This document shows positions 1,125-42,657 of a stretch of 64,000 bases of DNA, piece after piece. The notes below the pieces were generated by a model. It worked only from the letters and a program-made list of their open reading frames with translations. It searched no databases and was not told the DNA's origin. Made by a program: the position numbers and the translations under genes. Source of the DNA: Escherichia coli (lineage in GTDB: Bacteria > Pseudomonadota > Gammaproteobacteria > Enterobacterales > Enterobacteriaceae); assembly GCF_045037415.1 (NCBI RefSeq), contig NZ_CP173439.1; one strand, given 5' to 3'. Numbering within the stretch: position 1 is the first letter of the stretch; each line of letters opens with the position of its first letter.

Positions 1125-1650
<526 letters not shown>

Positions 1651-3098: not shown

Positions 3099-3165
3099 AA
3101 ACATGCCTGCACGATTCACACATCATCCCATGGTGGCAGCCGGTTAACTTTCCTGCACCACCAGT
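3075..3165. repeat. Inverted-repeat copy A (~90 bp) bounding the AT-rich lasso island; partner at 9035..9125
   Basis: Reverse complement of 9035..9125 matches this stretch with a few mismatches (shared ...ccccgtaaaaacatgcctgcacg...catcccatggtggcagccggttaactttcctgc...). Confidence 0.6.
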
Positions 3166-3463
3166 GGAAAGAGGCCATGAGCAGTCCGAACAAAAAACCA
3201 CCCGTGATACTTATAATAATGGCCTCACCGGCCACCATTCCTGACGGCCCCCAGTAGATAAACCACATTGCACATCCCCAGGAAATGCCCCATAAGCCCC
3301 CCGTCAGCACCGTGACCTGCCAGAACGGCATAAAGGGTAATGGCGGAAGCCGGATCCCCAGCCGCCAGAGAATACGCAGAAGAGGAGGGGCATAATTGCT
3401 CCGCCACATCTTTTTGCTGTCCATCAGGGCAATGGCCCGGGCTTTTTTCTGCTCAAAAGTCAC
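3116..3463 (-). CDS. hypothetical small membrane protein
   Basis: 115-aa ORF with hydrophobic helices (LWGISWGCAMWFIYW, IIISITGGFLFGLLMASF); its last ~17 codons are duplicated in inverted orientation near 9040..9090. Confidence 0.5.
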   Translation of the reverse strand: MTFEQKKARAIALMDSKKMWRSNYAPPLLRILWRLGIRLPPLPFMPFWQVTVLTGGLWGISWGCAMWFIYWGPSGMVAGEAIIISITGGFLFGLLMASFHWWCRKVNRLPPWDDV

Positions 3464-3573
3464 AGGAGTACCTCCGTTCCATGATGTAAACGTGACACAG
3501 TTTATTGTTATTGATTATTATTATCATTATGTTATCACGCACCAGTACACGATGACAATAAAGGAGAAACCAG

Positions 3574-3921
3574 ATGAAAGCGGATATATCTGTAAAGTAT
3601 TTTCTGAAAAGCCTGATACCAGGTTTCATTATTCTTACAGTTTTTTATCTGGGATGGAAAGATAACCAGGAAAATTCAAGAATGTTTTATGCGTTCATCG
3701 GATGCATTATCAGCTCCATTACTTTTCCTTTTTCAATGAAGATAATACAGAAAATGGTAATAAGGTTTACAGGGAAAGAAGTCTGGCAAAAAGACTTCTT
3801 TACTAATCCAGTTGGCGGAAGCTTAACTGTAATATTTGAATTATTCTGTTTCGTTATATCAGTTCCTGTAGTTGCCATTTACTTAATATTTATATTCTGC
3901 AAAACCCTTTCAGGAAAATGA
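3574..3921 (+). CDS. small polytopic membrane protein, unknown function (first gene of the AT-rich island)
   Basis: 115-aa ORF with about three hydrophobic segments; AT-rich codon usage like the lasso genes downstream. Confidence 0.5.
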   Translation: MKADISVKYFLKSLIPGFIILTVFYLGWKDNQENSRMFYAFIGCIISSITFPFSMKIIQKMVIRFTGKEVWQKDFFTNPVGGSLTVIFELFCFVISVPVVAIYLIFIFCKTLSGK

Positions 3922-4456
3922 AAGGGCATCATTATATGTCAGATACCAATAAGTTTATTGTTCTGCTCAATAAACTTATCATTAACAAGCGCACTCACAG
4001 CAGCCATAATAATTGCAAAACCCAGAATACCTACAAGGGTCCCCGGCATGACGGAAAACGTCCATGCGGTAACAGATGAAGTAGCTCTTCCTGCTGCCAG
4101 TGATTCAAGTTTTACAAAAAATGGACGCCAGTTATCTGTCCAGACAACCTTACCAAACTCAGTGCTCCAGTCAGCAAAATCGTTGCCTTCAGTACACCGT
4201 GTTTTCTCTTCAGCTCTCTTCTGGTTGATGTCGGCAAGCTGGCAACAAAAATTCTCTTTTTACGTCAAGAACGTCATTTGCATGTTTTTACTCATTTGTT
4301 CTGGCACTGACGTTATTTCTCGCCGAATTTACCGCAGATTCAGCAAAGGTGATTTTATTGTAACTGCAACACCTACCAGATGACGGAAAACGGGTGAACG
4401 GATTAGAGTACGATTTTTCCATTTCGTGATCTTCACCTCAGAACCCCACCATTGAT

Positions 4457-4475
4457 GATAAAAATGATTATCATT
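4457..4475 (+). promoter_or_regulatory. Fur-box-like sequence next to the precursor promoter
   Basis: gataaaaatgattatcatt matches about 13 of 19 positions of the Fur consensus GATAATGATAATCATTATC; inner tgattatcatt is one mismatch from tgataatcatt. Confidence 0.3.
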
Positions 4476-4479
4476 CGCA

Positions 4480-4507
4480 TTGACACTTTGAAATAAGTAG
4501 TTATATT
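4480..4507 (+). promoter_or_regulatory. putative sigma-70 promoter of the lasso precursor gene
   Basis: TTGACA (4480..4485), 16-bp spacer, TATATT (4502..4507); about 70 bp upstream of the precursor ATG, which has an AAGGA Shine-Dalgarno. Confidence 0.35.
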
Positions 4508-4576
4508 TTTCATGGTTATTGAGCAATTGGTAACCAATGTAGGTTGTAGGTGTTTCATTTTCATTAAGGAATATGT

Positions 4577-4765
4577 ATGAAAAAACAATCTAAAGAAGTG
4601 AAAACCTCTGGCTCTGAACATCGTGAAATTATGATAGAAATTGATGCCTCTAAATCGACGAACGGTACCGGTGGAGGCTCCATCATTGAAGGGTCATACA
4701 CTGTCTATCGCTGCGATGGCGGAAGTGTCCCCTCGCGTCCTTTTGGCCCCCCATTCTGTCCTTAA
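4577..4765 (+). CDS. putative lasso-peptide precursor (A gene)
   Basis: 62-aa ORF MKKQSKEVKTSGSEHREIMIEIDASKSTNGTGGGSIIEGSYTVYRCDGGSVPSRPFGPPFCP; good SD; immediately upstream of the cyclase; Thr near the leader end, Gly-rich core start, Glu at a ring-forming distance, aromatic and Cys residues in the tail. Confidence 0.6.
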   Translation: MKKQSKEVKTSGSEHREIMIEIDASKSTNGTGGGSIIEGSYTVYRCDGGSVPSRPFGPPFCP

Positions 4766-4892
4766 ATTTAAAGGCTGGTCATGATTGAAATATTCACTTC
4801 TCTCAAACGAAAGCAATGAATCCGATAATACAGGTATATTCGATAAAAAGGACGTCTTTTGTGGCGTCCTTACCTTAAGGAGATTATTACGA

Positions 4893-6281
4893 ATGTCTTT
4901 GGGGGATAAATTTACATCTGGATACCGTGGGATTAATGCCTTCAATAGTGGCGTGATAAAACTTCTTGTTGCCAGAGAAAATGACTGGATTGAAGAAAAA
5001 CTTAGTGCCATTTTAACTCAATCACCTCGTATTGATTTCGAACCACTCATTGCGAGTATAGTTTTTGGGCGTACTGAGGGGAAAACTTCATTATTTAAAA
5101 ATGTGGAATGTATTGTTCCTGGTTGCAGTTTTAAAATTGACCACACGCACAATGGTGCATCCGTAAGTGAATATATTGACTGGAATGCAATTTCATATAA
5201 GACATTACCGCACGACCCGGCAGAGATTCTTTTTCAGTCTGTATCTGAAGTCGTCAACAGAAATCAAGGCGGATACTTTGTTGTGCGCCTGTCTGGTGGC
5301 ATGGACTCTACTGGCATTCTTCTCTCACTAATGGAGGCAGTTGATGTAAGCAGAATTATTGCCATAACTTATCGGTACCTTATGGGGACAAGCAATCAAG
5401 ATGAAGTATCAGCAAGGTATTTATGTAAAATATTTGGAATCAGGCAAATAATAATTGATTTTGAACCTCATTCATTATTTCATAGGCTTCCTTCACCAGT
5501 GCCTCCTGTTCTAAATATGAGAACAATAAATTTTAAAGTTTATGAAGAGGAAAGAAAGCGTATCGGAAGTATCTGTGGAGATAATTATACCCTGTTTGAT
5601 GGGCATGGGGGGGACCATGTATTTTGTGAGAAAATCCCGTTTGGAATAATAAAAGAGTTATTTTTCCATGGGAGTTTGTTAACCTCATGCCGTAAGTTAT
5701 TACAGATAGCTCGCCTTCATGGCATAAATATGAAAGATGTCTTATTAATGCATACTAATAGTATGCATTATCTTATAACTGAAGCACAGTGTTATTTTTC
5801 CAAAGATGTTATAAAAAACCTTCACTATGACAGAAAAACAGTAAGTGAAGAAAGAAAGTCAGCCCTTCAGGAGGCTATTCTTGATAATGGGACGAGCCTG
5901 ACGCTGAGTCTTACGGAAAACGATATATTCCCTTTTACAGACCAGAGGATGATAGGCTATGGTCTGAAACTCAGAGTTGAGGAGTCATTTGATACTACAT
6001 CAAAACGATTTCAATACAGAAAAGCGATTAATGACAGATATAAATTTGTATTTACCAGAAAAGATAAGGGGCATATAACAGGTGCATATCAGTCGGCCCT
6101 TAGTGTTAATAAGGACCGTGTTATTAATCTTCTGCGCCATGGGCAGTTCGCGACACACGGTTTGTTAAACTTGGAGGGGGTAGAGCGAGCAATAGAAACA
6201 AGTTCTCATGGCATCGGTGGAGTCAGTTTTATTCTTATGAAATTAATTGCTGCAGAACTTATCTTTGAAGGATATTTATAA
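4893..6281 (+). CDS. lasso-peptide cyclase (asparagine synthetase B-like, C protein)
   Basis: ORF 4785..6281 with the likely start at ATG 4893 (AAGGAG SD); PP-loop ATP pyrophosphatase motif VVRLSGGMDSTGIL; size like McjC; stop overlaps the next start (TAATG). Confidence 0.75.
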   Translation: MSLGDKFTSGYRGINAFNSGVIKLLVARENDWIEEKLSAILTQSPRIDFEPLIASIVFGRTEGKTSLFKNVECIVPGCSFKIDHTHNGASVSEYIDWNAISYKTLPHDPAEILFQSVSEVVNRNQGGYFVVRLSGGMDSTGILLSLMEAVDVSRIIAITYRYLMGTSNQDEVSARYLCKIFGIRQIIIDFEPHSLFHRLPSPVPPVLNMRTINFKVYEEERKRIGSICGDNYTLFDGHGGDHVFCEKIPFGIIKELFFHGSLLTSCRKLLQIARLHGINMKDVLLMHTNSMHYLITEAQCYFSKDVIKNLHYDRKTVSEERKSALQEAILDNGTSLTLSLTENDIFPFTDQRMIGYGLKLRVEESFDTTSKRFQYRKAINDRYKFVFTRKDKGHITGAYQSALSVNKDRVINLLRHGQFATHGLLNLEGVERAIETSSHGIGGVSFILMKLIAAELIFEGYL

Positions 6282-6964
6282 TGACTTCATTCTACTTTAA
6301 GCCGAATATACATCATGTCAATATTAATAATGAAATAACTATCCTTGATGAGATATCTGATCGTTATATCCTTCTTTCAGAAAAGCAATCAATTCTCTTA
6401 AAAGAGTATATGAGTGATGGTTCTCATAATTATGTCGGTGATACAATGAACCTGGAAGGTATAATTTCTAAGGAGTCGGGTACTCCTTTGGCAAAGAGTA
6501 CTCCGTCTCCTCAGGGGGTTGGTATATTGACCTGGAACAGTTATGTCAGCACTCGGTTGGGTATTGCCAGTTTTTTTTATATCTCTGAAGCAATAATGAG
6601 AATGATTCTTGTCCGAAAACGTCTCCAGTCAAAGGGTTTTCACCATTGCCTTGAGCATTGTCGTTGTGCGCTTAGCCAGAAGAGTTTTCCGTACATTTCC
6701 CTGAAAGATAAATTAATTATTGGGCAGAAGTTGAGCCAGAGTATTAAAATTGCGGCACCGTTTATCCCGGGCAAGGTTAAATGCCTTGAGTTTTCACTTG
6801 TTTTGTTCGACATGTTAGTGTCAAGAAAAATCAGTCCCACATTATTTATTGGATTCCAGCGCTATGATTTTCTTTCTCATGCATGGCTGGAAATTGATAA
6901 TGAAGTGGTTGCAGACCAAGATAACCTGAAAACAAAACTTACACCAATAATTAGAGTGGGATAA
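6281..6964 (+). CDS. lasso-peptide leader peptidase (transglutaminase-like Cys protease, B protein)
   Basis: 227 aa; candidate Cys...His...Asp triad (KVKCLEF ... LSHAWLEIDNE) with spacing like McjB; translationally coupled on both sides. Confidence 0.7.
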   Translation: MTSFYFKPNIHHVNINNEITILDEISDRYILLSEKQSILLKEYMSDGSHNYVGDTMNLEGIISKESGTPLAKSTPSPQGVGILTWNSYVSTRLGIASFFYISEAIMRMILVRKRLQSKGFHHCLEHCRCALSQKSFPYISLKDKLIIGQKLSQSIKIAAPFIPGKVKCLEFSLVLFDMLVSRKISPTLFIGFQRYDFLSHAWLEIDNEVVADQDNLKTKLTPIIRVG

Positions 6965-8688
6965 TGAAAATAAAAAATGTCATTTGTGAATTAAAATCAG
7001 GGGCAAGTGCTTACTCTTCGGCCTACAAGCTCATACGCTCACTGTATCCCGCATTCACATTTTCTTTTATCGGTGTGTCCATTCTCTTTATTCTGGCTTC
7101 GGTTCTTGGTGCATTACTTCCTTATCTGCTCAAAAAGACAGCGGAGGCGTATACTTTCTCTGAAGGGATATTATCTGCATTTTTCCTGATCACAATGACC
7201 TACGCCGTCAGCTGGACAGTGACCGAAGTACTGAAGAATATCAGAGGCATTTTTTCTGCGGGAATTCTGGCACAAGCAGATGCAGCACTAACCAGTAACA
7301 CGATGGAGATTTTACTTTCTATTAGTTTCCGGAAACAAAAGGAATTTGAGCCGGCGGTCCTGGCTGCAAATATTGATCGTGGCGCGCAATCATTCAGTGC
7401 GCTGACATTATCTGTTTTCTGGACACTACTCCCAATTACTGTAGAAATCAGTATGGCTGTTTATTTTCTTTATCAGAGTCTGGGTTTTACTTATTCACTT
7501 ATTTTCTCAATTTCTGTTATAGGTATGATTTTTCTTGCCTTCAGCATAGCGATCTTTAGTCGTCATATCCATACCGATATAATGAATACTCAGAATGGGG
7601 TGTATTCTTATACGATTGAGCGACTTGCCATGCCGTTGGATATCCGAATTAATTCAGCTCATGCAAAAGAAAGAGTTCTTCGCCAGGAAATTCTTAATCA
7701 GTATGTTAATACAATTAAGCTGACCAATAAAAAAATGGGCTTTTTACTGTCACTACAGGCAGTAGCTGTAGGCGTATTGCTTGCTATATCCGTACTGGTT
7801 CTGGTTTTTTTTAAAAAAGCGTCTCATATTGGAACTGGTGACTTTATTATGATTGTGGGCTATATTAGCATGCTAACATTTCAGTTGCGCACAATAGCCG
7901 GAGCCAGCATTGACATTCAACGCCAGATTGTGTACCTGAAAATTCTTCTGGAATATAACAGTATGCATCCCGAAGGGGTTATCCCTGATACAGTAAGCTC
8001 CCGCAGCACTGAGCGTATTTTTGATGTGCGTAATCTTGGAGCTTTTGCTGACGGCAGACTCCTCTTTAATAATGTGAGCTTCAGGATCCATGAAGGTGAA
8101 ATGTTTGCACTTTCTGCGCCTTCAGGTTTTGGTAAATCCACAATTCTGCAATATTTACTCGGTCTTGATACCCCAACTGAGGGCGATATTTATTTCCGAG
8201 GATACCGGATTAACACAGAGTTGAGTGCGTCTATCCTGGAGGACGTTGCTGTTGTGCCTCAAAAAGCCGTTCTGGTGCAGGGAACTATTCGTGATAATAT
8301 TCTGTATGGAACCGATGACATTCTTCCCGATGATGAACTGTTTTGCATCCTGAATTCATTGGGGTTAATTAAAGAGGACTGCGGAGAACATTTCCTTGCT
8401 TTCCTAGACCGGGATATTAATCCTCTGGGTAGTGGTTTGAGTGGTGGAGAGATCCAGCGATTATGCATAGCCCGCGCCCTAGCCCGTAAGAAAAAGATTA
8501 TCGTACTTGATGAACCCACGGCCTCTATTGGCGAAGAACTCGCGATAAAGATCATTACCTATATCCGGCAGCATTGCCCTACCGTTATTATTACAACTCA
8601 TAATCCACGAATTCTGGAGCTCGCCGATCATTTTTTTGATGGTATGTCAAAGTCTTGCGTCATTGCTGGAGAAGGCAGAGACCAATAA
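6964..8688 (+). CDS. ABC exporter (fused permease-ATPase, McjD-like export/immunity, D protein)
   Basis: 574 aa; N-terminal multi-TM domain; Walker A APSGFGKST, signature LSGGEIQR, Walker B IIVLDEPT. Confidence 0.85.
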   Translation: MKIKNVICELKSGASAYSSAYKLIRSLYPAFTFSFIGVSILFILASVLGALLPYLLKKTAEAYTFSEGILSAFFLITMTYAVSWTVTEVLKNIRGIFSAGILAQADAALTSNTMEILLSISFRKQKEFEPAVLAANIDRGAQSFSALTLSVFWTLLPITVEISMAVYFLYQSLGFTYSLIFSISVIGMIFLAFSIAIFSRHIHTDIMNTQNGVYSYTIERLAMPLDIRINSAHAKERVLRQEILNQYVNTIKLTNKKMGFLLSLQAVAVGVLLAISVLVLVFFKKASHIGTGDFIMIVGYISMLTFQLRTIAGASIDIQRQIVYLKILLEYNSMHPEGVIPDTVSSRSTERIFDVRNLGAFADGRLLFNNVSFRIHEGEMFALSAPSGFGKSTILQYLLGLDTPTEGDIYFRGYRINTELSASILEDVAVVPQKAVLVQGTIRDNILYGTDDILPDDELFCILNSLGLIKEDCGEHFLAFLDRDINPLGSGLSGGEIQRLCIARALARKKKIIVLDEPTASIGEELAIKIITYIRQHCPTVIITTHNPRILELADHFFDGMSKSCVIAGEGRDQ

Positions 8689-8712
8689 ACCACACACGTT
8701 AATTCATTTATA

Positions 8713-8980
8713 TCTAATCGGGGTTGTACGCCGGAAACGCCGAAATTTCCGATACAGCGAATTTGTTGATTTTTGAAGCATGTTTGGCAGGTTTTGACGT
8801 GTACGTTTATGGTGCAGTAAGTGAGAATTTATTCGTACCAGCCATATGATACGTTACGGGCAGTGATTTTTCGCGCTAGACAGCTATTTCTTTGCTGTCC
8901 GGTTAACTGTGGTCTTACGTACAGGTTGCCGAGCATAAAATTTGTGCCTCCCGGAAATTTCGGCGTTTCCGGCGTACAAC
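8713..8980. mobile_element. miniature inverted-repeat element (~268 bp) with 32-bp perfect terminal IRs beginning GGGG
   Basis: GGGGTTGTACGCCGGAAACGCCGAAATTTCCG at 8713..8744 and its exact reverse complement at 8949..8980; no ORF between. Confidence 0.45.
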
Positions 8981-9034
8981 CCCAAATAAATTCAATTAAT
9001 TACCTAAACAAGGTGAGACTTTTAGAGGAAATGA

Positions 9035-9125
9035 GCGCGGAACCCCTCTTTCCACTGGTGGCGCAGGAAAGTTAACCGGCTGCCACCATGGGATGATGTG
9101 TAAACCGTGCAGGCATGTTTTTACG
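9035..9125. repeat. Inverted-repeat copy B (partner of 3075..3165)
   Basis: Contains an inverted duplicate of the 3' end of the 3116..3463 gene (reads ...SFHWWRRKVNRLPPWDDV*) plus its downstream sequence. Confidence 0.6.
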
Positions 9126-9137
9126 GGATGATGCTTT

Positions 9138-9169
9138 CATTTGGATATAGAGAATTATTGTACGTTCAG
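9138..9169. repeat. partial copy of a 38-bp Tn3-family-like terminal repeat (tttggatatagagaattattgtac...)
   Basis: Shares the core tttggatat.ga.aattattgtac with copies at 32001, 42145 and 56465. Confidence 0.4.
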
Positions 9170-9465
9170 CACAACAAACTTAATACTAATGTATGCATAC
9201 ATTAGCATTAACTACACATTTAAGACATTAACCATTAATAATGTGTATTATTACACAATATTACCCATCAGGAAGCACGTCGTCAGTATTAGAAAAAAAT
9301 TACAAACGCTCGCCGCAGGCCCAGCGACCGAACGTTAGTGAGCGAGGAAGCGGAAGAGTGTCAGGTCTGAATTGAGCACATACGCCAGAAATTATATAGT
9401 AAAAAGATATATGATTTTTACATTGCTCAGTAGATTGTAAAATGCTGCTGATTGGATATCTATAT

Positions 9466-9852
9466 CTAATTTAGAATAATGGCTTTAAGATGGTCAGAAA
9501 CCATCTTCCAGTTATATTCTCCTGTTGCAGCATTCAAAGCGATAATTTGCATTTCATCAAACGAAATACGTGAACTAATAATATGTACACCATTCCGTTT
9601 TAAAAAAACCTGTGCAACAAACAAGGCTGTTCGCTTATTTGCATCGTTGAAAATGTGACCACGAGCAATAGCAACTAAATACACGGCAGCCAGATCCATA
9701 ATATCTGTCACACCTTCATAATGATACATGTTCAAAACACGATGAATGATCGCGTCAGCGCGACCGGGTTCTGGCATACCCGCCACGCCACCATCACGCG
9801 AAATCAAGCGGTCATGAAACTCAATCACTTCCTGTGAACTAACGAATTTCAT
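9466..9852 (-). CDS. doc: Doc toxin (Fic/Doc family)
   Basis: 128 aa with the Doc motif HIFNDANKRTA; overall similar to P1 Doc as recalled; overlaps the phd stop. Confidence 0.8.
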   Translation of the reverse strand: MKFVSSQEVIEFHDRLISRDGGVAGMPEPGRADAIIHRVLNMYHYEGVTDIMDLAAVYLVAIARGHIFNDANKRTALFVAQVFLKRNGVHIISSRISFDEMQIIALNAATGEYNWKMVSDHLKAIILN

Positions 9853-10073
9853 CGCTTAGAAAGCTCCGTATAGGCCGTCCCATGACTTTGCATGATCTCA
9901 GCAAACTCAGCATCAAGAGCCGCTTTACGGTATCGTTCAAAAGCGTCTTTATCAACTAGTACAGCCGCGCCACCTTTACGGCGCTGAATCTCAACAGGCT
10001 GATTTTCATCAACCGCCAGCTCGAGCAACGAGGCCAGGTTATCGCGAGCATGGCTATAGTTACATGTAAACAT
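9849..10073 (-). CDS. phd: Phd antitoxin (Phd/YefM family)
   Basis: From internal Met: MFTCNYSHARDNLASLLELAVDENQPVEIQRRKGGAAVLVDKDAFERYRKAALDAEFAEI..., close to P1 Phd. Confidence 0.75.
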   Translation of the reverse strand: MFTCNYSHARDNLASLLELAVDENQPVEIQRRKGGAAVLVDKDAFERYRKAALDAEFAEIMQSHGTAYTELSKR

Positions 10074-10090
10074 AGTGCTTCCTCTTTGAG

Positions 10091-10111
10091 TTGTACAATT
10101 AAATTGTACAA
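10091..10111. promoter_or_regulatory. putative phd-doc operator: two TTGTACAA palindromes
   Basis: ttgtacaattaaattgtacaa about 20 bp upstream of the phd start; each 8-mer is self-complementary. Confidence 0.35.
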
Positions 10112-10260
10112 CAGTTCTGTTCAATATGAAATCACCGTAGTAAGGGGGGCGTGCCCATTTCCTCTAAAAGTCTCACCTTTATTATGTAATTAATTGAGTT
10201 TATTTAGAAAATGTTGCAATTTTAGCATCATTTTTTATTGTTCTTTTTAACCTGAAGTAG

Positions 10261-10297
10261 GGGGCCGCTTGGAATTCGGAAATTTTCCCACGCTAAG
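10261..10297. repeat. Tn21/Tn1721-subgroup-like 38-bp terminal IR remnant abutting IS21 copy 1
   Basis: GGGGCCGCTTGGAATTCGGAAATTTTCCCACGCTAAG resembles the Tn1721 IR as recalled (GGGG...AATTCGGAAA...ACGCTAAG). Confidence 0.4.
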
Positions 10298-10357
10298 TGT
10301 CAACGCCACGATGTTTGACCGTTATTTGCCATTTTCATGCCCGCTAAGATACTTTCG

Positions 10358-12327
<1,970 letters not shown>

Positions 12328-13153
12328 GTTGATGTCCTTTCTGGTGTGAGAACCTTAAGGAAACAACATGTTGGGTGGAGCGGACAATCCAAATGGTGAA
12401 TTACCGTCTTATATCACTGGCGCTGACACGGCGTAGAACCCCGAGAAAACGAGAGCATGAAAACCCCCAGGACAGTCACTGAATGGGGGACCAGCAGCGG
12501 TAAAATAACCGACATAATTTCATAATGATGCCTCCGTTAGTTATGAAGGTTTGCGGGCTGACTATACTGTTGGTGCCTGAGCAGAACTGAAGGATTGAGC
12601 GTGTTTCTGATGGAGAGTTCCACAGGTATCCACGAGATTGATTATGCCACCAGAAACACGCTCGGATGCGTTTTAACGTTACTTTTACTGGCAGGCAAGG
12701 TTTCTTTGTTTTATTTGTATTCTGACTCTCAGAATGACTCTGTTCGCTCCATAAATATTAAAATTATCAGGTAGAAGAACTCTCTTTTGTACAACTTAAC
12801 TGTGTCTTTATGGAAATGTTGTAAAGGTTCTTTTCTTTAGCTGTATCGTATTTAAATATACTTTTCTGTAAGTGGAATCTTTGCATAAGATAATAAAAAA
12901 CAGCAAATTATATTAATGGTTATGATATCCTGGGAACACCTGATTAACTAATAAGTTATTTTAATAAAAACATCTGCACTGGCAAATAATTGTACCCCCT
13001 TCAATAGGAATATTCTTATTTAATGGCCTTGTTTATATTCTAAAAATAAAACTGAGAAACTCATCATATATTTGGTAAGAAAACGCACCGGTGAACACTA
13101 TCATGAGGCTATACTGCACTTCCTCAAATTGGGATATTATGATGCATTGATTC

Positions 13154-19117: not shown

Positions 19118-20095
19118 GTGGATAAGTCGTCCGGTGAGCTGGTGACACTGACACCAAACAATAACAACACCGTACAACCTGTGGCGCTGATGCGTCTGGG
19201 CGTCTTTGTACCTACCCTTAAGTCACTGAAGAACAGTAAAAAAAATACACTGTCACGCACCGATGCCACGGAAGAACTGACGCGTCTTTCTCTGGCCCGT
19301 GCAGAAGGATTCGATAAGGTTGAGATCACCGGCCCCCGCCTGGATATGGATAACGATTTCAAGACCTGGGTGGGGATCATTCATTCCTTTGCCCGCCATA
19401 ACGTAATTGGTGACAAAGTGGAACTGCCTTTTGTCGAGTTTGCAAAACTGTGTGGTATACCTTCAAGCCAGTCATCCCGCAGGCTGCGTGAGCGTATCAG
19501 CCCTTCCCTGAAGCGCATTGCCGGTACCGTGATTTCGTTTTCCCGTACCGATGAGAAGCACACCCGGGAATATATCACCCATCTGGTACAGTCAGCCTAC
19601 TACGATACTGAGCGGGATATTGTGCAGTTACAGGCCGATCCCCGCCTGTTTGAACTGTACCAGTTTGACAGAAAAGTCCTTCTCCAGCTTAAGGCGATTA
19701 ATGCCCTGAAGCGACGGGAGTCCGCCCAGGCACTCTACACCTTTATAGAGAGCCTGCCCCGGGATCCGGCACCGATATCGCTGGCGCGGCTGCGTGCACG
19801 CCTCAATCTGAAGTCTCCTGTATTTTCCCAGAACCAGACGGTCAGACGGGCAATGGAGCAGTTGCGCGAGATTGGATATCTTGATTACACGGAGATCCAG
19901 CGGGGGCGGACAAAATTCTTCTGTATTCACTACCGGCGTCCCCGGTTAAAAGCGCCGAATGATGAGAGTAAGGAAAATCCGTTGCCACCTTCACCTGCGG
20001 AAAAAGTCAGTCCGGAGATGGCGGAGAAGCTTGCCCTGCTTGAGAAACTGGGCATCACGCTGGATGACCTGGAAAAACTCTTCAAATCCCGCTGA
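19118..20095 (+). CDS. repA: RepFIB replication initiator RepA
   Basis: 325 aa, [30 protein letters not shown]..., matches the RepFIB (P307-type) RepA as recalled; flanked by iteron-like repeats. Confidence 0.9.
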
Positions 20096-28847: not shown

Positions 28848-28908
28848 GTGTCAACGCCACGATGTTTGACCGTTATTTGCCATTTTCATGCCCGCTAAGA
28901 TACTTTCG

Positions 28909-30878
<1,970 letters not shown>

Positions 30879-32000
30879 GTTGATGTCCTTTCTGGTGTGA
30901 GAACCTTAAGGAAACAACATGTTGGGTGGAGCGGACAATCCAAATGGTGAATTACCGTCTTATATCACTGGCGCTGACAAACAGGGATATTGCGACAATT
31001 CACAGCAATATCGTGCAGGAATACAACACCCTTAAAGGGTATAGCTGGAAATGGCTGGGTGGGGTGTCAGTGGCTTTTCTGGTTATGTTCTGTGTGCTCG
31101 GATGGGGAATGAAAACAATACTCGACAGGAACTACAACGCCACAGCGGCGGTGTATCAGAAAGTTGTGACACTGGAAGATAAACTGGTGGAGAAACCTGT
31201 CACGGGGAAGAGCCGGAAAAACTGACGCGCTTCGCTTGTCCAACGCCTCACGACCCGCGAAAGAATTTCGCGAACCGTTCACTGTTTTTTTCAATATGAT
31301 TCTGTCTGCTTTGGTCGATAAAGCAGACGATAGTATTCCAGCCTTCGTATATATAACGGTACGTGCTCATCAGTAAGAGCTGGCGGTATTGTGTTATCAG
31401 GGGGAAGTTTTTTCAGATACTCACGAAATGCCTGGCTTGATGCCATAAAATCTACAGCTGCATCGATAATATGTGGGATATTTTCATCTAATTTTGTCAT
31501 GATGATTGATCTGATATTATCACGGTTCGTGAATTATAGTATGTCACTATTATTTATGCTTTAGTGAACCAGAAAAAATCCCCCGTTGGTATAGGGGGAT
31601 ATGTAAGGAGAAATAACTTCGCAGGTGTTCTTGTTTGTATTATAACGTGAAAAGAATGCACGCAACTTAATTAATCTGCCGTACTTCCTTTCAGTTTTCA
31701 AGATAAGGTTTATAATAAAACATGGAATGGAAGCAAGCTTTAAGGTTTCAGCTCTAAAATTTTTAATATCTATTAACTAGCTAGTTGTTGTCCTTGTGAG
31801 CATGTTGTATATAAAAGCTAGGATAATATCCTGACCGGAGTATTCATATTCCTTATCCCCTCTGTGTTCTCAGAGGTTTTTTTCTGTATTTAATGATATG
31901 AGCTGGAATGCGATTCCGGCCCCCCCCGTTTACATAATTCTCCCTGACATACGGCACCGGAATCGCATTGATTTTGCATTGCTAATGTCTAACTGTGCTG

Positions 32001-32038
32001 GTGAATGTTGGGGGCAGTTTGGATATCGAAAATTATTG
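32001..32038. repeat. 38-bp Tn3-family-like terminal repeat copy (GGGGCAGTTTGGATATCGAAAATTATTGTACGTTAAGG)
   Basis: Starts GGGG, ends ...GTTAAG like Tn3-family IRs; related copies at 42145 and 56465. Confidence 0.45.
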
Positions 32039-32042
32039 TACG

Positions 32043-32389
32043 TTAAGGTTGTTTTTTGACCTTGTCGGGGTCCGCCTGCGGGCAGTAGAGATCATATAAG
32101 GTATTCAATAACGTCATGATGCGGTTATCCCCGATACGGTAATATACCATTTTACCTGCCCGTCGGGTTCGACCAGCTTCAGGCGACGCATGACACCCAA
32201 CTGCTGAGACAGGGTCGGCTGAGTGATACCGACCGCCGCTTCCAGCTCGGTCACATTCGCTTCCCCCTGGCTTAACTGACACATCAACAATAGCCGGTCG
32301 CTGTTGGCCAGTCCCCGTAGGACATCTGCTGCCCCCAGGGCTGCATTTTTCATATCAGTCTGACGTTTTGTGTCTTCATTCATGGGCAT
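32043..32389 (-). pseudogene. ArsR/SmtB-family regulator (BigR/YgaV-like), apparent frameshift
   Basis: HTH region (NVTELEAAVGITQPTLSQQLGVMRRLKLVE) in one frame and the expected wing (GKMVYYRIGDNRI...LYDLYCP) in an overlapping frame; break near a G-run around 32160..32200. Confidence 0.55.
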
Positions 32390-32510
32390 TGCTGGTTTCT
32401 TATATTATGTATTTTTATATAATATTGTTCAGTATAATGATAGTGGCGTAATTTTGCCACCGTGATCTTCAGGTCTGCAGCGTCCAGCTGGACCGGGTAA
32501 CTAATTATAT

Positions 32511-34208
32511 ATGGCAGATATTTTGCCCCGAGTGAACAGAGAGGATGTAATGAAAATAGTGATTGTTGGTGGTGTTGCCGGGGGAGCATCCGCTGCAGCC
32601 AGGGCTCGTCGGTTATCAGAGGATGTCAGTATTGTTGTGTTTGAGCGGGGAAGCGATGTCTCTTTCGCCAACTGTGGATTGCCTTATCATATAGGCGGAA
32701 AAATTCCGTTACGGCAGTCGCTGATTCTGAAAACCCCGGAGGATTTTAAATCCCGTTTTAACATAGACGTCCGTATCCGTCATGAAGTGATGTCAGTAGA
32801 CCCGGTTAATAAGATGGTGACGGTTAAAAATCTGACCTCCGGGGAGGTCTATACCGAAGAATGGGATCGTCTGCTCCTCAGTACCGGTGCCGCTCCGGTT
32901 GTTCCCCCCTTGCCCGGACTACAGGAAGCGGGTGTCTTTACACTGCGAAATCTTACTGACATGGATGCTATCCAGGCGTGGATTGAGCAACATAATATCG
33001 CTCACACCACGCTTGTCGGGGGGGGATTTATCGGGCTCGAAGTGATGGAGGCACTGAGCGAAAGGGGGATCAGTGTGACCCTGCTGGAGATGGGGGAACA
33101 GGTTATGGCTCCGGTTGATCCTGAAATGGCATCGGCCCTGCATCAGGAAATCAGGAGTCATGGCGTGGATCTGCGTCTCAGAACGGCGCTCACCGAGGTA
33201 CTGCGGACAGAGACGGGATTCCGCGTTGCACTGTCTGACGGTGGGTTTCTGCAGACCGACATGGTTATTCTCGCCATCGGGGTAAAACCTGAGAGCAGCC
33301 TTGCCACAGGAGCCGGGCTCGCCGTGGGTAAACGGGGAGGCATAAGTGTCAATGCCTGTATGCAGACAAGTATCCCTGACATCTATGCCGTGGGGGATGC
33401 AGTTGAAACACCTGACCTTGTCTTTCAGGAACCCGCTAATGTTCCTCTGGCAGGGCCAGCCAACCGCCAGGGACGCATTGCTGCTGATAATATGCTCGAT
33501 CGTCACAGCCTTTACCATGGCAGTCAGGGGACATCCATTTGTAAGGTATTTTCGCTGAGTATTGGCAGTGTCGGGGCGAATGAAAAGCAGCTGAAAGCCC
33601 ATGGTACCCGATACGAGAAGGTTTACGTCCATGCCGCTGATCATGCCAGTTACTACCCGGGGGCAACAATGATCAGTCTGAAACTGCTGTTCAGCCCCGA
33701 TACCGGTAAAATTCTCGGGGCCCAGGCGTCAGGGAAAAAAGGGGTTGATAAACGCATCGATGTCCTGGCTGTCGTACAGCGCGCGGGGCTTACCGTTAAC
33801 GATCTCGAGCATCTGGAGCTGACCTATGCTCCGCCTTTCAACAGTGCAAGGGACGTCGTTAACCAGGCTGGAATGGTGGCGGCAAATGTTATCAAGGGTG
33901 ATACGGTCATCTGTCATGTCCGCGATGTGTTACAACGGGAACCGGGCAGTTATTGTTTACTTGATATTCGTTCTCCTGCAGAACTGAAACAATTTGGTGA
34001 ATATCCTGACGCGCTATCCATCCCTCTTGATTCCCTGCGGGAGAATCTTGATAAGTTGCCTGAAGATAAAGAGATTATTATCGGGTGTCAGAGTGGTCTG
34101 CGGGGGCATGTGGCATACCGTATGCTTCAGTCTCACGGCTTCCGGACATATAATCTGAGTGGTGGTTTTATAACTTGGCAGGCGGTTACGGAATCAATGA
34201 GTCAATAA
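32511..34208 (+). CDS. CoA-disulfide/persulfide reductase with C-terminal rhodanese domain
   Basis: 565 aa; FAD-binding GGVAGG start, pyridine-nucleotide disulfide oxidoreductase core with redox Cys (SFANCGLPY), C-terminal rhodanese with active-site Cys (IIIGCQSGLRG). Confidence 0.85.
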   Translation: MADILPRVNREDVMKIVIVGGVAGGASAAARARRLSEDVSIVVFERGSDVSFANCGLPYHIGGKIPLRQSLILKTPEDFKSRFNIDVRIRHEVMSVDPVNKMVTVKNLTSGEVYTEEWDRLLLSTGAAPVVPPLPGLQEAGVFTLRNLTDMDAIQAWIEQHNIAHTTLVGGGFIGLEVMEALSERGISVTLLEMGEQVMAPVDPEMASALHQEIRSHGVDLRLRTALTEVLRTETGFRVALSDGGFLQTDMVILAIGVKPESSLATGAGLAVGKRGGISVNACMQTSIPDIYAVGDAVETPDLVFQEPANVPLAGPANRQGRIAADNMLDRHSLYHGSQGTSICKVFSLSIGSVGANEKQLKAHGTRYEKVYVHAADHASYYPGATMISLKLLFSPDTGKILGAQASGKKGVDKRIDVLAVVQRAGLTVNDLEHLELTYAPPFNSARDVVNQAGMVAANVIKGDTVICHVRDVLQREPGSYCLLDIRSPAELKQFGEYPDALSIPLDSLRENLDKLPEDKEIIIGCQSGLRGHVAYRMLQSHGFRTYNLSGGFITWQAVTESMSQ

Positions 34209-34486
34209 GAGATGAGGTGCCATACACATGGCACCTCATCTTCCAGATTCATTGAAAACGTATTATATGGAATAGAAATCTACAAAAATAATTAACACCC
34301 TGGATGGTACCCTATTGCGATAATGTGGACTGTTCAAAAAACAGGCTTACCGTACAATAATTCTCTATATCCAAACTGACCCCAATGTTCCTGAATGTAA
34401 ATCTCCGTACAAAGATATCGTTGAGTTTTATATAATTCATTGTTTTTATTGTGTTTTGTTTTTTTTGGTTGTGCTGGTTTGTAGTT

Positions 34487-34512
34487 ATAAAAAACCCCTG
34501 GGAATCCAGGGG
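34487..34512 (-). terminator. possible Rho-independent terminator (minus strand)
   Basis: GC stem cccctgg/ccagggg with a 4-nt loop, followed on the minus strand by a T-run. Confidence 0.3.
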
Positions 34513-35571
34513 TAGGTAAGGAAAACAAATGATACTCAGTTAGTGTTGCACTTTAAACGGGTTGAAGTATAACTCGTATTAAATGAGATGTTGAAAATAA
34601 GTGAAAACCATTGCTGGTTGCAATAGGGCAGTATGCGTAAAAAATAAATTTGTGATGCTTTTCAAAAAAACAATTAATACATGAATATTACAGCTCATAT
34701 ATTACAGTTTATAAAAAACTGTGTTTTATCTATTACATAGAGAAAAATTCTTATCCTGAGCTGTGAACTTGGTTGTTTCGTTTGATATATATCTTTGTAA
34801 ATGTGGTTTATTATGCGGGCATTTTTTATTGAGTATTGAATCAGAATAAGTGATGCAGCTAAATTTATTTGCGTAACTATTTCATTGTCAATATTCTGAC
34901 TCAATCTGACACCTATCGTTTCTCTTGGATTCCCCACTTTTGTGGTTTTTTATCCGGAACGGGATAGTGCCAGTTGTTTTTTATCAGCCTCAGGGTATTT
35001 TGGGGCGGTTGCGAACATTGACGCATTCCACAACTAAAAAAAATTTCTCACAGACTCTGATTCTTGCCCCGACCCTTGGTCGGTTTTTTTTTGTCCTGGC
35101 GAAACGTGAAGCTCTGAAACAGGAAACCCCGTCAGAGCGCCACGCACCAGGGGAGAAAACTTGTCGTTTTGAGCCGTTCGGTGTTCAGAACGCACGAAAC
35201 CGATCGCACATCGCTTTCGTGCATAGTTATGCAACGCCCTGAAAACGATTCTGACGCGTTTTTCTGGTTTGGCCTGGTGTTTTCTTGTCTTTTTGCGTTT
35301 TTTGCGCCAGAAAGCGATTGAGGGCGTTTTACATGGTACGTACAACGGGAGTTATGGTAAATGGATCGGGTTTTCGGGAAGGTTCGACAGGATTTGCCGT
35401 TGGGTGTAGTGTAAGCGACTGAAAAACAAACGCCCCTGAAATCATGTCCAGATCCGGCAGAACCAGCCTCATGCGCAGTTCTGGCTGGTTTTTGACGTTG
35501 ATCGCGAGGGGGCAGCGATTGACTGGAGCGACCGGAACGCTCCCGCGCCGAACATCACCGTAAAAAATCCT

Positions 35572-36138
35572 GTGAACGGTCATGCTCACCTGCTCTACGC
35601 GCTCAATATCGCCGTGAGAACCGCGCCGGACAGCTCGGTTAAGGCGCTGAAATACGCCGCTGCGATTGAACGTTCGCTGTGTGAGAAACTTTGTGCTGAT
35701 GTGAACTACAGCGGACTGATTTGTAAAAATCCGTTCCACCTGGAATGGCAGGTGATGGAGTGGCGAGAGGAAGCCTATACCCTCGATGAACTGGCTGATT
35801 ATCTCGATTTGAGCGCCTCAGCGCGCCGTAGCATCGATAAACATTACGGGATGGGGCGAAACTGCCACCTGTTCGAAATGACGCGCAAATGGGCTTACAG
35901 GGCGATTCGTCAGGGCTGGCCCGAATTCTCACAGTGGCTTGATGCCGTGATTCAGCGTGTCGAAATGTACAACGCATCGCTTTCCGTTCCGCTTTCACCG
36001 CCTGAATGTCGGGCTATTGGCAAGAGCATTGCGAAATACACGCACAGGAACTTCACGCCGGAAACTTTCGCACAGTATGTGGCTGATACGCACACATTAA
36101 CGTACGTTTTCGTTCCATTGGCCCTCACCCCCCGATAA
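35572..36138 (+). CDS. ColE2-type replicase / PriCT-domain Rep protein, probably 5'-truncated or frameshifted
   Basis: Conserved sequence continues ~45 codons upstream of the annotated start (..FWLVFDVDREGAAIDWSDRNAPAPNITVKNPVNGHAHLLYAL..) with no start codon and stops just beyond; C-terminal PriCT-like region (ECRAIGKSIAKYTHRNFTPETF). Confidence 0.5.
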   Translation: MNGHAHLLYALNIAVRTAPDSSVKALKYAAAIERSLCEKLCADVNYSGLICKNPFHLEWQVMEWREEAYTLDELADYLDLSASARRSIDKHYGMGRNCHLFEMTRKWAYRAIRQGWPEFSQWLDAVIQRVEMYNASLSVPLSPPECRAIGKSIAKYTHRNFTPETFAQYVADTHTLTYVFVPLALTPR

Positions 36139-36377
36139 CGACCCAGGTAGCGCGCCGTATTCCCCCCGCCGGCCGTTTTCTTCGACATGTACATCAGGCG
36201 CGGAACTCATCGGGGCGCGGGAATGAAATCCCATTCAGACTCCGGATAGATTCAAGCAAGCCCACTTATCGTCAAAATCGGTGTTGCAAAAACGGGAGTG
36301 ACCATAGATCCGTTTTCCAAGCGGACCCCATAATATCGGCTGGTAAACATCACTCGCTAGTGCATTCTTTTTGTTGG

Positions 36378-36394
36378 TAATGATAATCATTTAC
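36378..36394 (+). promoter_or_regulatory. Fur box upstream of the ChaN-like/TonB/receptor cluster
   Basis: taATGATAATCATTtac contains a 13-bp perfect match to the Fur-box core AATGATAATCATT. Confidence 0.5.
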
Positions 36395-36470
36395 ATTCAT
36401 TCTTTGATGTTTTATCATAATTAATGTTTTGTCAATAAATATATGGAAACATATTGTTTCAGATGGGAAT

Positions 36471-37346
36471 ATGAGAAAGTTCATCCTTATTTCTATGATA
36501 ACGTTAGCTAGTGTTAGTCTGGGAGCCTGCAGACAGAATGTCACCATAAAGCAGGATGCGCCAGGGCAGAAAGCTTTCCTGACTGACGGGCAGATTTACG
36601 ATTTGCACAGTGGCAAAATTATTTCTAGCAGCGAGCTTTTGGCGGATCTTGCTACCGCTCAACATCTTATTATTGGTGAAAAACACGATAATGCCGAGCA
36701 TCATCAGATTGAGCTTTGGCTTATTCAAAATTTGCTCATCCAGCGACCACAGGGGAGTGTGTTGCTTGAGATGTTGACGTCAGAGCAACAGCCCCGAGTT
36801 AACCAAGTTAAATGTTGGCTGAAAGATAATCCTGTGGTTCGAGATAGCCGTGTTCAGGAACTACTTAACTGGCAAAAAGGGTGGTCCTGGGAGATGTATG
36901 GCGACATCGTCATGCAGCTATTACGTGGGCCTTACCCGCTGCTCAATGCCAACATTGGCCGGGAGCAGATATTGGCACTGTACAAAAAAAACGAATTTCC
37001 TAAAGGAAAAAAATCCACTGCACCTGTGGTACAAGAAGCTCTGCGTGAAACCATCATATCTATGCATGAAGGCAACCTTGAAAGCCAGCAACTGACGTCA
37101 ATGCTCTCTATTCAGCAGCAGCGGGATCGCTACATGGCCCGCCAGCTTCTGAGTGCCCCGGTACCGTCGTTGTTGATTGCAGGTGGTTATCACGCGTCAA
37201 AAAGCATGGGCGTACCGTTACACATGGAAGATCTTGCCACCGGCACCCATCCAGTGGTGTTGATGCTTGCAGAAAAAGGAATGAACATCACAGTAGATCA
37301 TGCTGACTACGTGTGGTTTGTAGCGCCAGATACAACAAAAAGGTAA
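36471..37346 (+). CDS. ChaN-like lipoprotein (Tiki/haem-binding-uptake family)
   Basis: Lipoprotein signal with lipobox LGAC; motif GEKHDNAEHH typical of the ChaN family as recalled; start taken at the internal Met of ORF 36429..37346. Confidence 0.55.
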   Translation: MRKFILISMITLASVSLGACRQNVTIKQDAPGQKAFLTDGQIYDLHSGKIISSSELLADLATAQHLIIGEKHDNAEHHQIELWLIQNLLIQRPQGSVLLEMLTSEQQPRVNQVKCWLKDNPVVRDSRVQELLNWQKGWSWEMYGDIVMQLLRGPYPLLNANIGREQILALYKKNEFPKGKKSTAPVVQEALRETIISMHEGNLESQQLTSMLSIQQQRDRYMARQLLSAPVPSLLIAGGYHASKSMGVPLHMEDLATGTHPVVLMLAEKGMNITVDHADYVWFVAPDTTKR

Positions 37347-37353
37347 ACCATGG

Positions 37354-38130
37354 ATGATGAATATTCTCCACTTCTCACAGTCGGTAAAATGGAGCAGCTG
37401 GTTTATCTGTTCTCTACTGCTTCATGGACTGATTTTCCTTGCGTTTATCTGGCGTTTTTCCGAAGTTCAGCCCGCTATGTCTCCTGCACCGGCGATCATG
37501 CTGCAATGGGCAGAAATTATAGAGGCTCCTTCTTCTCCACTTTCGCTTCCGGTGGGAATCGCTCAACAGGAGTCCGCAGTGACAGAAGAAAAGCAACAAA
37601 CTGAGGACAGACAACAACGTCCTGTCACTGAAGACAGTGATGCAACCATTGAAATAACTAGGAAGAAAAAGTCATCCGATGGAGAAAAGAAAAAGACACG
37701 TCCACCTCGTAAGATAAAGGCTCAAACCAGCGACAGCAACCCCACAGCCGTTTCCAGTAATGCTGCACCTCAGGCTCTGGTCGAATCGTCCCGTATTGCT
37801 GCGCCTTTTAACAGTGACTCAACAAAGCGAGATAATTCTGAGGCATCTTGGGAAAGCAGAGTAAAAGGCCACCTAAACCGTTATAAACGTTACCCTGGCG
37901 ATGCCAGAAAACGTGCACGAACCGGCACAGCCGTCGTGACTTTTACCGTAAACACGGAAGGCACTATTGTCAGTAGTTTCTTGGAAATCTCTTCAGGAAC
38001 CTTTTCTCTTGACCGCGAAGCTATTGCTGTTTTAGAACGCGCTCAACCACTTCCCAAACCACCGCCTGAAATATTGGAGGGAGGATTATTTAAAGTAAAA
38101 ATGCCGATTACCTTTAAGTTGAAGGAGTAA
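37354..38130 (+). CDS. tonB: TonB-family energy transducer
   Basis: N-terminal membrane anchor, Pro/Lys/Glu-rich spacer, C-terminal TonB domain (YPGDARKRARTGTAVVTFTVNTEGTIVSSFLEISSGTFSLDREAIAVL). Confidence 0.8.
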   Translation: MMNILHFSQSVKWSSWFICSLLLHGLIFLAFIWRFSEVQPAMSPAPAIMLQWAEIIEAPSSPLSLPVGIAQQESAVTEEKQQTEDRQQRPVTEDSDATIEITRKKKSSDGEKKKTRPPRKIKAQTSDSNPTAVSSNAAPQALVESSRIAAPFNSDSTKRDNSEASWESRVKGHLNRYKRYPGDARKRARTGTAVVTFTVNTEGTIVSSFLEISSGTFSLDREAIAVLERAQPLPKPPPEILEGGLFKVKMPITFKLKE

Positions 38131-42067: not shown

Positions 42068-42105
42068 AGTAGTTTTAGAGGGCTGACGCTCAGTGGAACG
42101 AAAAC
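42068..42105. repeat. Tn3 (TnA)-type 38-bp terminal IR remnant
   Basis: ...CTGACGCTCAGTGGAACGAAAACTCACGTTAAG identical to the Tn3 IR over 33 bp. Confidence 0.55.
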
Positions 42106-42144
42106 TCACGTTAAGAGGTTTTGACTATGATAAAAGTCAAAGTA

Positions 42145-42182
42145 GGGGTGAGTTTGGATATGGAAATTATTGTACTATAAGG
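42145..42182. repeat. 38-bp Tn3-family-like terminal repeat copy (GGGGTGAGTTTGGATATGGAAATTATTGTACTATAAGG)
   Basis: Same family as 32001 and 56465; followed by ~85 bp that recurs at 12437..12520. Confidence 0.45.
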
Positions 42183-42326
42183 AGAGCATGAAAAACCCTG
42201 GGGCAGTCACTGAATGAGGGACCAGCAGCGGTAAAATAACCAGCATAATTTCTGCGTGGTCGATTTTTATACCGTGACAGGCTGTTTTTTATACTTGCAC
42301 CGATTCCCGGGCACACTTAGCCTGTG

Positions 42327-42593
42327 TCAGGCCGGCATATACCTCAGCAGACTGATATCCCGCGCGTTTTTCTTCAGCCCTGATACATTCAGCCCCGCAA
42401 TGGCCCGGCGGTATACCATCCGGCCGCCGCACAGCACGCATTCGAACGGGTCACGACTCAGGAACTGTTTCACCATTTGTGCATAGCACACTTTCGCCAC
42501 TGCTTCCGGTTTATCCATCCCCAGAGCACGGTACACCTGCGGCAGCTTCTCTCCACACACCCGGTTGGCAAGGAACCCGAAGTACCTCACCAT
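42327..42593 (-). pseudogene. IS91-family transposase, C-terminal fragment
   Basis: 88 aa (MVRYFGFLANR...FECVLCGGRMV...) parallels the C-terminus of the IS91 TnpA at 16638..17870; no N-terminal part. Confidence 0.6.
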
Positions 42594-42657
42594 CTTAAAA
42601 AACTGAACCGCCCCGGGAATCCTGGAGACTAAACTTCCTGAGAAAGAGGTAAACAGG

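Follow-up and report, generated by a model that had tools for sequence, protein, structure and literature searches.

A ColE2-type rep pseudogene, lacking both ends and its origin, inside an IncF plasmid of Escherichia coli

What does a gene for the replication protein (Rep) of a small plasmid do inside a large plasmid of the IncF group? The question is raised by a window of 64,000 nucleotides (nt) of Escherichia coli DNA (one strand of contig NZ_CP173439.1, RefSeq assembly GCF_045037415.1), by which we mean the whole stretch that was analysed, and in particular by an open reading frame (ORF) of 188 amino acids (aa) near its middle. A preliminary description, made from the sequence alone, took this ORF for what remains of a ColE2-type rep gene that had been captured with a small plasmid and had lost its 5' end. 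The finding is real and that interpretation is supported, with damage that is larger than was described. We consider it very likely that the locus is an inert pseudogene, consisting of the middle 215 codons (40-254) of a ColE2-type (Col156, MOBQ4-2) initiator-primase gene. The Rep of ColE2 is a primase of the AEP family that binds the origin of the plasmid and synthesizes the primer used by DNA polymerase I (PMC4538821), and the members of the ColE2 Rep-like family share an architecture of AEP, PriCT-1 and helix-turn-helix (HTH) parts, with motifs I to III, of which motif I has the form hhhDhD/E (PMC5862659). Native Rep unwinds an origin of ~32 bp and makes a short RNA primer there, while the copy number is governed by RNAI, an antisense RNA directed at the 5' leader (PMC4538821, PMC5862659, PMC6856555). 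In the MOBQ4-2 or ColE2-like plasmids the 32 bp origin lies downstream of rep, control is by antisense RNAI, and a cer-like site is carried as well; free MOBQ plasmids of 5.2-7.5 kb have been equated with the ColE2-like plasmids and with the "Col156" type of PlasmidFinder (PMC6856555).

The ORF as listed begins with a GTG at 35572 on the plus strand of the window. Translation in the same frame from 35380 meets stops at 35407 and 35437 and is then open from 35440 to 35571, a run of 44 codons that reads NHVQIRQNQPHAQFWLVFDVDREGAAIDWSDRNAPAPNITVKNPV and offers no ATG, GTG or TTG between the stop at 35437 and the GTG; the preliminary description had correctly noted some 45 conserved codons without a start. 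Inspection of the sequence upstream of GTG 35572 revealed no visible Shine-Dalgarno-like sequence. Among Pfam models, Replicase (PF03090, the AEP primase; E 5.4e-23) matches the 188-aa ORF at model positions 56-130 of 130 only, so that the N-terminal part of the domain is missing, and PriCT_1 (PF08708; E 8.9e-6) matches residues 95-157, placed after the primase domain, where a PriCT-like C-terminus had been recognized before. AEP motif I (hhhDhD) is encoded as FWLVFDVD at 35479-35502 (LVFDVD at 35485-35502), and because this is upstream of the only start codon, with none available after the stop at 35437, the motif lies outside the translatable protein. The frame as a whole is uninterrupted across 229 codons. 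A search of NCBIfam with the 229-aa conceptual product gave no match, which means that a model is absent and is not evidence for another family. The 188-aa ORF is an accidental reading frame and not a gene.

The origin of the frame is evident from its alignments with intact relatives. Over 644-645 nt the remnant is 94-95% identical in DNA sequence to the rep genes of four small-plasmid records (L003, L004, L005 and L007), and the nucleotide homology with intact rep genes begins at 35452, at codon 40, which sets the extent of the missing N-terminus. Three of the small plasmids illustrate the intact form: NZ_CP116486 (5,166 bp, Rep of 304 aa), NZ_CP010218 (5,312 bp, 308 aa) and NZ_OZ546997 (7,462 bp, 311 aa), all of which have MobA/MobL relaxase genes or MOBQ typing. 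At the protein level the product of the window is identical or nearly identical to full Reps across residues 40-254 only; past residue 254 the full Reps run on for 50-57 residues (PEIQA.RGRKGG...WEALGISRAWYY), and the IncF copies read LTYVFVPLALTPR and then stop. Likewise, in tblastn searches plasmids of 3.7-12 kb match residues 1-254 at ~93-96%, and the match ends at 254. The DNA-binding domain of ColE2-P9 Rep (PDB 3vw4) aligns to residues 170-297 of a small-plasmid Rep (L003; E 1.2e-56). Against an N-terminally intact IncF copy (CP077381, or L001), whose 3' end is the same as that in the window, it aligns to residues 170-247 only (E 4.6e-40), and the 3vw4 chain beyond about residue 81 has no counterpart there. 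That copy is annotated as a 267-aa "replication initiation protein" and matches Replicase at positions 3-130 (E 1.3e-43). The gene in the window is therefore, on this comparison, a close relative of ColE2 Rep from which both ends have been lost. The ColE2-type assignment made earlier is borne out by the two domains, the match to ColE2-P9 and the identity to the rep genes of free MOBQ plasmids.

At the 5' end the loss is an internal deletion of 183-185 bp, the counterpart of which in CP077381 is 3453-3637. A megablast search of plasmids with 35000-36400 found nearly identical sequences in many E. coli IncF plasmids, a minority of which have ~185 extra bases; these 183-185 nt are present in three of 12 IncF copies that we compared. 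The lost interval held 68 nt of leader with the Shine-Dalgarno region, the ATG, codons 1-39 and most of an RNAI-type hairpin. About 440 bp of native upstream sequence is retained; the deletion is internal, and what was lost does not lie at the border of the captured DNA. The loss of the 5' end proposed in the preliminary description thus stands in itself, with the refinement that it is an internal deletion and that the 3' end and the origin are missing as well. The hairpin was recognized by folding: the minus strand of the intact leader (L001, 3418-3535) forms a long stem, GCCCCUG...CAGGGGC, followed by GUUUGUUUUU, and the z-score of this fold over the whole 118 nt is unremarkable. The deletion begins inside the hairpin and leaves the window with its 3' arm and T-run only. 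If the hairpin belongs to RNAI, as we infer, the antisense gene would have been destroyed too. Scans of 34900-36450 and of the intact copy for promoter and terminator consensus sequences were uninformative with respect to a rep promoter or RNAI, and an Rfam scan of 33000-38000 (E<=1) gave chance-level matches to microRNAs and small RNAs only, none of them in or beside the remnant. The retained leader includes a XerC/XerD site (Table 1) that differs by one mismatch from what we take to be the cer arm consensus. This cer-like site of the captured plasmid is intact in the IncF plasmid and could support Xer-mediated fusion with co-resident Col plasmids.

At the 3' end the last 50-57 codons, which encode the HTH half of the DNA-binding domain, are gone and a Tn1000-like terminal inverted repeat (IR) stands in their place, where it supplies the last 13 codons of the ORF. 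The minus strand of 36097-36133 reads GGGGGGTGAGGGCCAATGGAACGAAAACGTACGTTAA, and the foreign C-terminus is this repeat read in frame. The sequence used for comparison, which we take to be the IR of Tn1000 (gamma-delta), is present at 100% in plasmid F, at the end of a Tn3-family transposase gene, and set side by side with it the IR of the window differs at two positions. Codon 254 of rep meets the IR (36096-36097) at its inner end, to within 1-2 nt, rather than at its outer tip. A simple insertion of Tn1000 into rep and a Tn1000 cointegrate were rejected as the whole story; either of them, like an adjacent deletion, would place the tip at the junction.

The origin is likewise missing. We defined it from conservation downstream of rep in the three small plasmids, which share AAGCCTATATCAGATAACAGCGCC right after the rep stop, at the position of a ColE2-type origin; the sequence found there in the window is unrelated. 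A search of the whole 64 kb for the AAGCCTATATCAGATAACAGCGCC 24-mer, with up to 3 mismatches, gave no matches, and a 14-mer core has one chance-level match, at 54988. The preliminary description had pointed to 36139..36300 as the place where a ColE2-type origin might lie, and this proved to be occupied by stacked transposon relics instead. The gene of which the first is a fragment is continuous in a Shigella boydii plasmid (L008), where an uninterrupted ORF of 72 aa matches positions 225-294 of the IS91 transposase model NF033538 (E 1.4e-16). The second, 36189-36329, has matches of 91-96% in at least 5,000 plasmids, often in 2-4 copies per plasmid, in hosts that include Klebsiella, E. coli, Enterobacter, Citrobacter and Salmonella and on plasmids that include IncC; in pAM04528 a sequence of this type directly adjoins IS5075. 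As a single-strand promoter or ssi-type hairpin this segment was rejected, neither strand folding better than its shuffles.

Table 1. Coordinates in the window of the rep remnant, the captured DNA and the elements that adjoin them
Feature	Position	Strand	Basis or remark
IS21 copy; its terminal repeat ...GGCGCTGACA adjoins 30980, where the captured block begins	28848..30979	-	sequence comparison
Captured block	30980..36096	+	71% of a 7.46 kb Col156/MOBQ plasmid
Native region upstream of rep, kept from the small plasmid	35005..35442	+	93% identity to L003 4656-5091
cer-like XerC/XerD site, GGTACGTACAA-CGGGAG-TTATGGTAAAT	35335..35362	+	one mismatch to cer arm consensus; 0/100 shuffles
RNAI-type terminator hairpin, only 3' arm and T-run	35416..35442	-	fold of intact copy and alignment
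In-frame open stretch without start codon, contains AEP motif I	35440..35571	+	translation
Deletion scar, 183-185 bp	35443..35451	.	comparison with intact copies
rep remnant proper, codons 40-254 (most of AEP primase domain and PriCT-1)	35452..36096	+	nucleotide identity, protein alignment, PGAP
188-aa ORF	35572..36138	+	rep codons 80-254, 13 foreign codons and stop
Tn1000 (gamma-delta)-like terminal IR, outer tip 36133	36097..36133	-	pattern match; 0/100 shuffles
Internal fragment of IS91-family transposase gene, cut by IR tip	36134..36188	-	continuous in Shigella boydii L008
Terminal ~140 bp fragment with Tn21-subgroup-like IR GGGGTCCGCTTGGAAAACGGA, tip 36329; not a ColE2 origin	36189..36329	-	sequence matches

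Compared with a 7.46 kb record (L004, 1541-6854), the window is 98.5% identical in 30980-35442 (4,485 aligned positions) and 95.3% identical in 35452-36096 (645 nt), and free circular plasmids of 7,462 bp with matching content are known from complete E. coli genomes (NZ_OZ546997 and NZ_JCANNG010000005). The collinear block, which bears out the earlier proposal that a small plasmid had been captured, contains the 3' part of a mob-associated ORF, a small ORF, a cassette of arsR and a CoA-disulfide reductase gene, the rep leader with its cer-like site, and the rep remnant. Absent from the window is the remaining ~2.1 kb, namely the 3' end of rep, the origin, an ORF of 399 nt, mobA with oriT, and the 5' part of the following ORF; a BLAST comparison of the whole window with L004 left the mobA region (325-1251) unmatched. 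About 5.1 kb of a 7.46 kb plasmid is embedded here in an IncF plasmid of the RepFIA-remnant/RepFIB, cjrABC-senB kind. IS21 forms replicon fusions, and because of this and of the IS21 end that adjoins 30980, IS21-mediated cointegration is a plausible route of capture; such a fusion at the left junction was probably followed by a transposon-associated deletion at the right. That the 5.1 kb block might itself be a transposon was considered and rejected, the sole other match to the IR in the window (42078-42114) being in the wrong orientation and beyond senB. Some IncF plasmids retain only 35150-36096 of the block.

The cassette within the block (32003-34390) comprises an arsR-family regulator gene on the minus strand (32043-32389) and a gene of CoA-disulfide reductase type (32511/32550-34208), the product of which presumably has a C-terminal rhodanese-like extension. 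The unit is flanked by inverted repeats of 57 nt that are 86% complementary, with AATGT(T) on both outer sides, and these contain Tn3-family-like IRs of 38 bp (GGGGGCAGTTTGGATATCGAAAATTATTGTACGTTAAGG). By its layout it looks like a non-autonomous cargo cassette of the Tn3 type. It is present in the free 7.46 kb plasmid and absent from the 5.2 kb relatives. Compared with its allele in NZ_LR890406, the arsR-family gene is one nucleotide short at ~32169; this 1-nt deletion splits it into two ORFs and reflects a frameshift or a sequencing error.

The remnant is far from uniform among IncF plasmids, and its variation bears on whether it retains a role of another kind. One possibility, which we entertain tentatively as the most serious of the alternatives, is that the remnant, its leader and the cer-like site make up a live interface for recombination with co-resident, high-copy Col156 plasmids, by gene conversion and transient cointegrates. 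It is compatible with the verdict of a pseudogene, to which it adds a by-product role. In its favor, variation among the 12 IncF copies (the window and 11 others) is concentrated in DNA homologous to the small plasmids, with 34 variable sites in the 293 nt of 35150-35442 and 64 in the 645 nt of rep as against only 2 in the 304 nt to the right of the junction, and all 45 differences between the window and CP077381 are confined to 35456-36027, with none in the next 1,220 nt. The haplotypes consist of blocks identical to small-plasmid alleles in varied combinations, whether or not a copy has the 185 bp deletion, and all four gametes are found at 183 of the 1,653 site pairs. In strain VR50 the remnant on the IncF plasmid pVR50B (L002, 3521-4281) shares its haplotype over codons 40-254 with the co-resident 5.16 kb plasmid pVR50E; over codons 1-254 it is 100% identical to NZ_CP116486, a 5.17 kb plasmid of another strain, and its leader is of the IncF type (92.8% to the small plasmid). 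Ratios of nonsynonymous to synonymous divergence (dN/dS; Nei-Gojobori, pairwise, codons 41-254) range from 0.06 to 0.19 and are ~0.09 for most pairs, including comparisons of IncF with IncF copies in which dS is up to 0.28, which fits differences that arose in functional genes. In the window a Xer site is kept at 35335-35362. On the other side, hybrid assembly or short-read polishing may copy the allele of a high-copy small plasmid onto the homologous region of a low-copy one, several of the records are hybrid assemblies, and the mosaic may thus be an artefact in part; the comparison moreover covers 12 copies only, and no cointegrate was directly observed. If the interface is genuine, the 185 bp deletion could be repaired and re-created, and cassettes such as the arsR-CoA-disulfide reductase unit could be shuttled between small and large plasmids.

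Independent captures are ruled out as the source of this diversity of alleles, the window and the 11 other copies sharing an identical right junction and flank. On the simplest reading of the polymorphism there was a single capture, after which homologous recombination or gene conversion took place again and again with Col156 plasmids in the same cells, and recurrent overwriting by small-plasmid alleles would explain why the pseudogene has hardly decayed.

We return with this to the pseudogene itself. The replicon has been disabled three times over: through the 183-185 bp deletion, which took away the start of translation together with 39 codons and most of the RNAI-type hairpin; through the exchange of the last 50-57 codons of rep, the HTH half of the origin-binding domain, for the Tn1000-like IR; and through the loss of the origin. 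A region so reduced cannot, as judged from what it encodes, initiate replication, it very probably contributes no copy-control incompatibility, and the remnant is presumably not expressed. Three points weigh against this account in whole or in part. The clean frame of 229 codons and the dN/dS of ~0.09 versus functional alleles could, taken alone, suggest selection for a product, but both are equally expected if functional alleles of small plasmids have been written over the remnant time and again, which is what the mosaic pattern suggests. The extent of RNAI in this group of plasmids is drawn from a fold and from the general literature. Lastly, neither simple insertion nor a cointegrate predicts a fusion of rep with the inner end of the IR, and the route of capture given above is a proposed one.

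The open frame, the intact PriCT_1 domain, the native promoter region kept upstream and the low dN/dS might also be taken to mean that a truncated Rep is made, either from the 188-aa ORF or as a longer product with a non-canonical start, for instance a PriCT-1 fragment with a dominant-negative effect on incoming ColE2-type plasmids. We think this very improbable: GTG 35572 has no recognisable ribosome-binding site and the native Shine-Dalgarno sequence and ATG were lost with the 185 bp deletion, AEP motif I would be missing from the product along with the HTH on which origin binding depends, one IncF copy (L018) has a 1-nt gap in the frame, and the PGAP annotation calls the feature a pseudogene. 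The output of typing implies that the IncF plasmid has an auxiliary "Col156" replicon in working order, and for this there is still less room. PLSDB and MOB-suite do list Col156 or rep_cluster_2131 as a replicon of these plasmids, and published accounts report Col156 as co-encoded on IncF plasmids of the F1:A2:B20 and the pUTI89-like F29:A-:B10 kinds, on the pUTI89-like ones beside IncFIB and IncFII replicons (PMC6949217, PMC9429958), but a replicon without an origin, a start codon, the C-terminal HTH and an intact RNAI is contradicted by the sequence, and we give the idea practically no credence. The remaining idea, which would have refuted the preliminary description, is that the 188-aa ORF encodes a whole protein belonging to some other family. 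Nothing was found in its favor and it can be set aside with near certainty, as homology to rep is continuous, at 94-95% nucleotide identity, through and beyond the start of the ORF, and the last 13 codons are read from a transposon IR.

The pseudogene is an ordinary and widespread one that has already been annotated, and the presence of the sequence is well known. With a probe of 239 nt (counted when coverage was at least 80%), the junction of rep, IR and IS91 fragment was found in 471 of 5,426 complete E. coli genomes, essentially always on plasmids, and in NZ_LR890406 the PGAP annotation of JMW09_RS25030 reads [quoted passage not shown]. What the present analysis adds, from the reading of its parts, is that the Col156 marker here cannot be a working replicon. 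In the pUTI89-like, cjrABC-senB IncF plasmids it is a triply disabled relic that typing tools miscount as a replicon, and a Col156 call on such a plasmid should not be taken as multi-replicon status, as a determinant of host range or incompatibility, or as evidence of a small Col plasmid. It also gives a provenance to part of a virulence-plasmid region, 71% of a 7.46 kb mobilizable plasmid that is still in circulation, including a cargo cassette related to redox and sulfur metabolism. About the replication of ColE2 there is nothing further to be learned from the remnant. Of the results, only the mosaic polymorphism deserves more work; if it is genuine, the remnant would be a convenient natural marker with which to measure how large and small plasmids recombine in clinical lineages of E. 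coli.

Other modules of the window bear out the earlier count of at least three that derive from replicons. Positions 1-12428 are 99.9% identical to a reference stretch in which a frameshifted integrase gene of the resD type, ccdB and ccdA lie beside RepFIA genes. An ORF of 325 aa (19118..20095) matches Rep3_N (E 1.2e-10) and, weakly, Rep3_C; it adjoins a tyrosine recombinase gene and occurs in plasmids typed as IncFIB, and a search of NCBIfam with this RepFIB-like protein found no matching model. The rep remnant is the third. Two copies of IS21 in the same orientation, at 10297-12428 and 28848-30979, enclose ~16.4 kb with an inverted block, an IS91-family transposase gene, the RepFIB-like repA, the tyrosine recombinase gene, IS2 and a gene for a heme-type TonB receptor. 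The reference NZ_LR890406 has a single IS21 there, which suggests an IS21-associated rearrangement or insertion. To the right of 36329 lie a cjrA-like ChaN gene, a TonB-like gene, a TonB-dependent-receptor gene and senB. Right of senB a Tn3-like IR (GAGGGCTGACGCTCAGTGGAACGAAAACTCACGTTAAG) is found at 42078-42115, some ~30 nt past which (within 42078-42181) is GGGGTGAGTTTGGATATGGAAATTATTGTACTATAAGG, a sequence similar to the IRs around the arsR unit, and fragments of IS91-family transposase genes follow at 42251-42604.

Among known systems, the ColE2-P9 Rep is the model for what was lost. The likeness lies in the Replicase (AEP) and PriCT-1 domains, in motif I, FWLVFDVD, in the same frame, and in residues 170-247, which in CP077381, over a stretch that the remnant also has, align almost identically with 3vw4; the window differs in keeping codons 40-254 only, without start codon, HTH portion or downstream origin, and is not a working member of the family. 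The free MOBQ4-2/Col156 plasmids, which are ColE9-J-like (NZ_OZ546997, the 5,166 bp NZ_CP116486 and pVR50E), are collinear with the block at 95-98.5% and share its cassette, cer-like site and rep leader; unlike them, the window has the additional 185 bp deletion and is without relaxase gene, oriT and origin. From the other pUTI89-like, cjrABC-senB IncF plasmids (NZ_LR890406 and pCE10A), which have the same coordinates and junctions at 98-99.9% identity, it differs in nothing of substance, the alleles differing by mosaic patches. A further parallel is RepFIC, a relic replicon of plasmid F into which Tn1000 has broken. It too is a defunct replicon that travels as a passenger in an IncF plasmid, and it too has an end of Tn1000 type where it is broken. 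RepFIC, however, is RepFIIA-like and of F type, whereas the remnant described here is that of an AEP primase and came from a foreign small plasmid.

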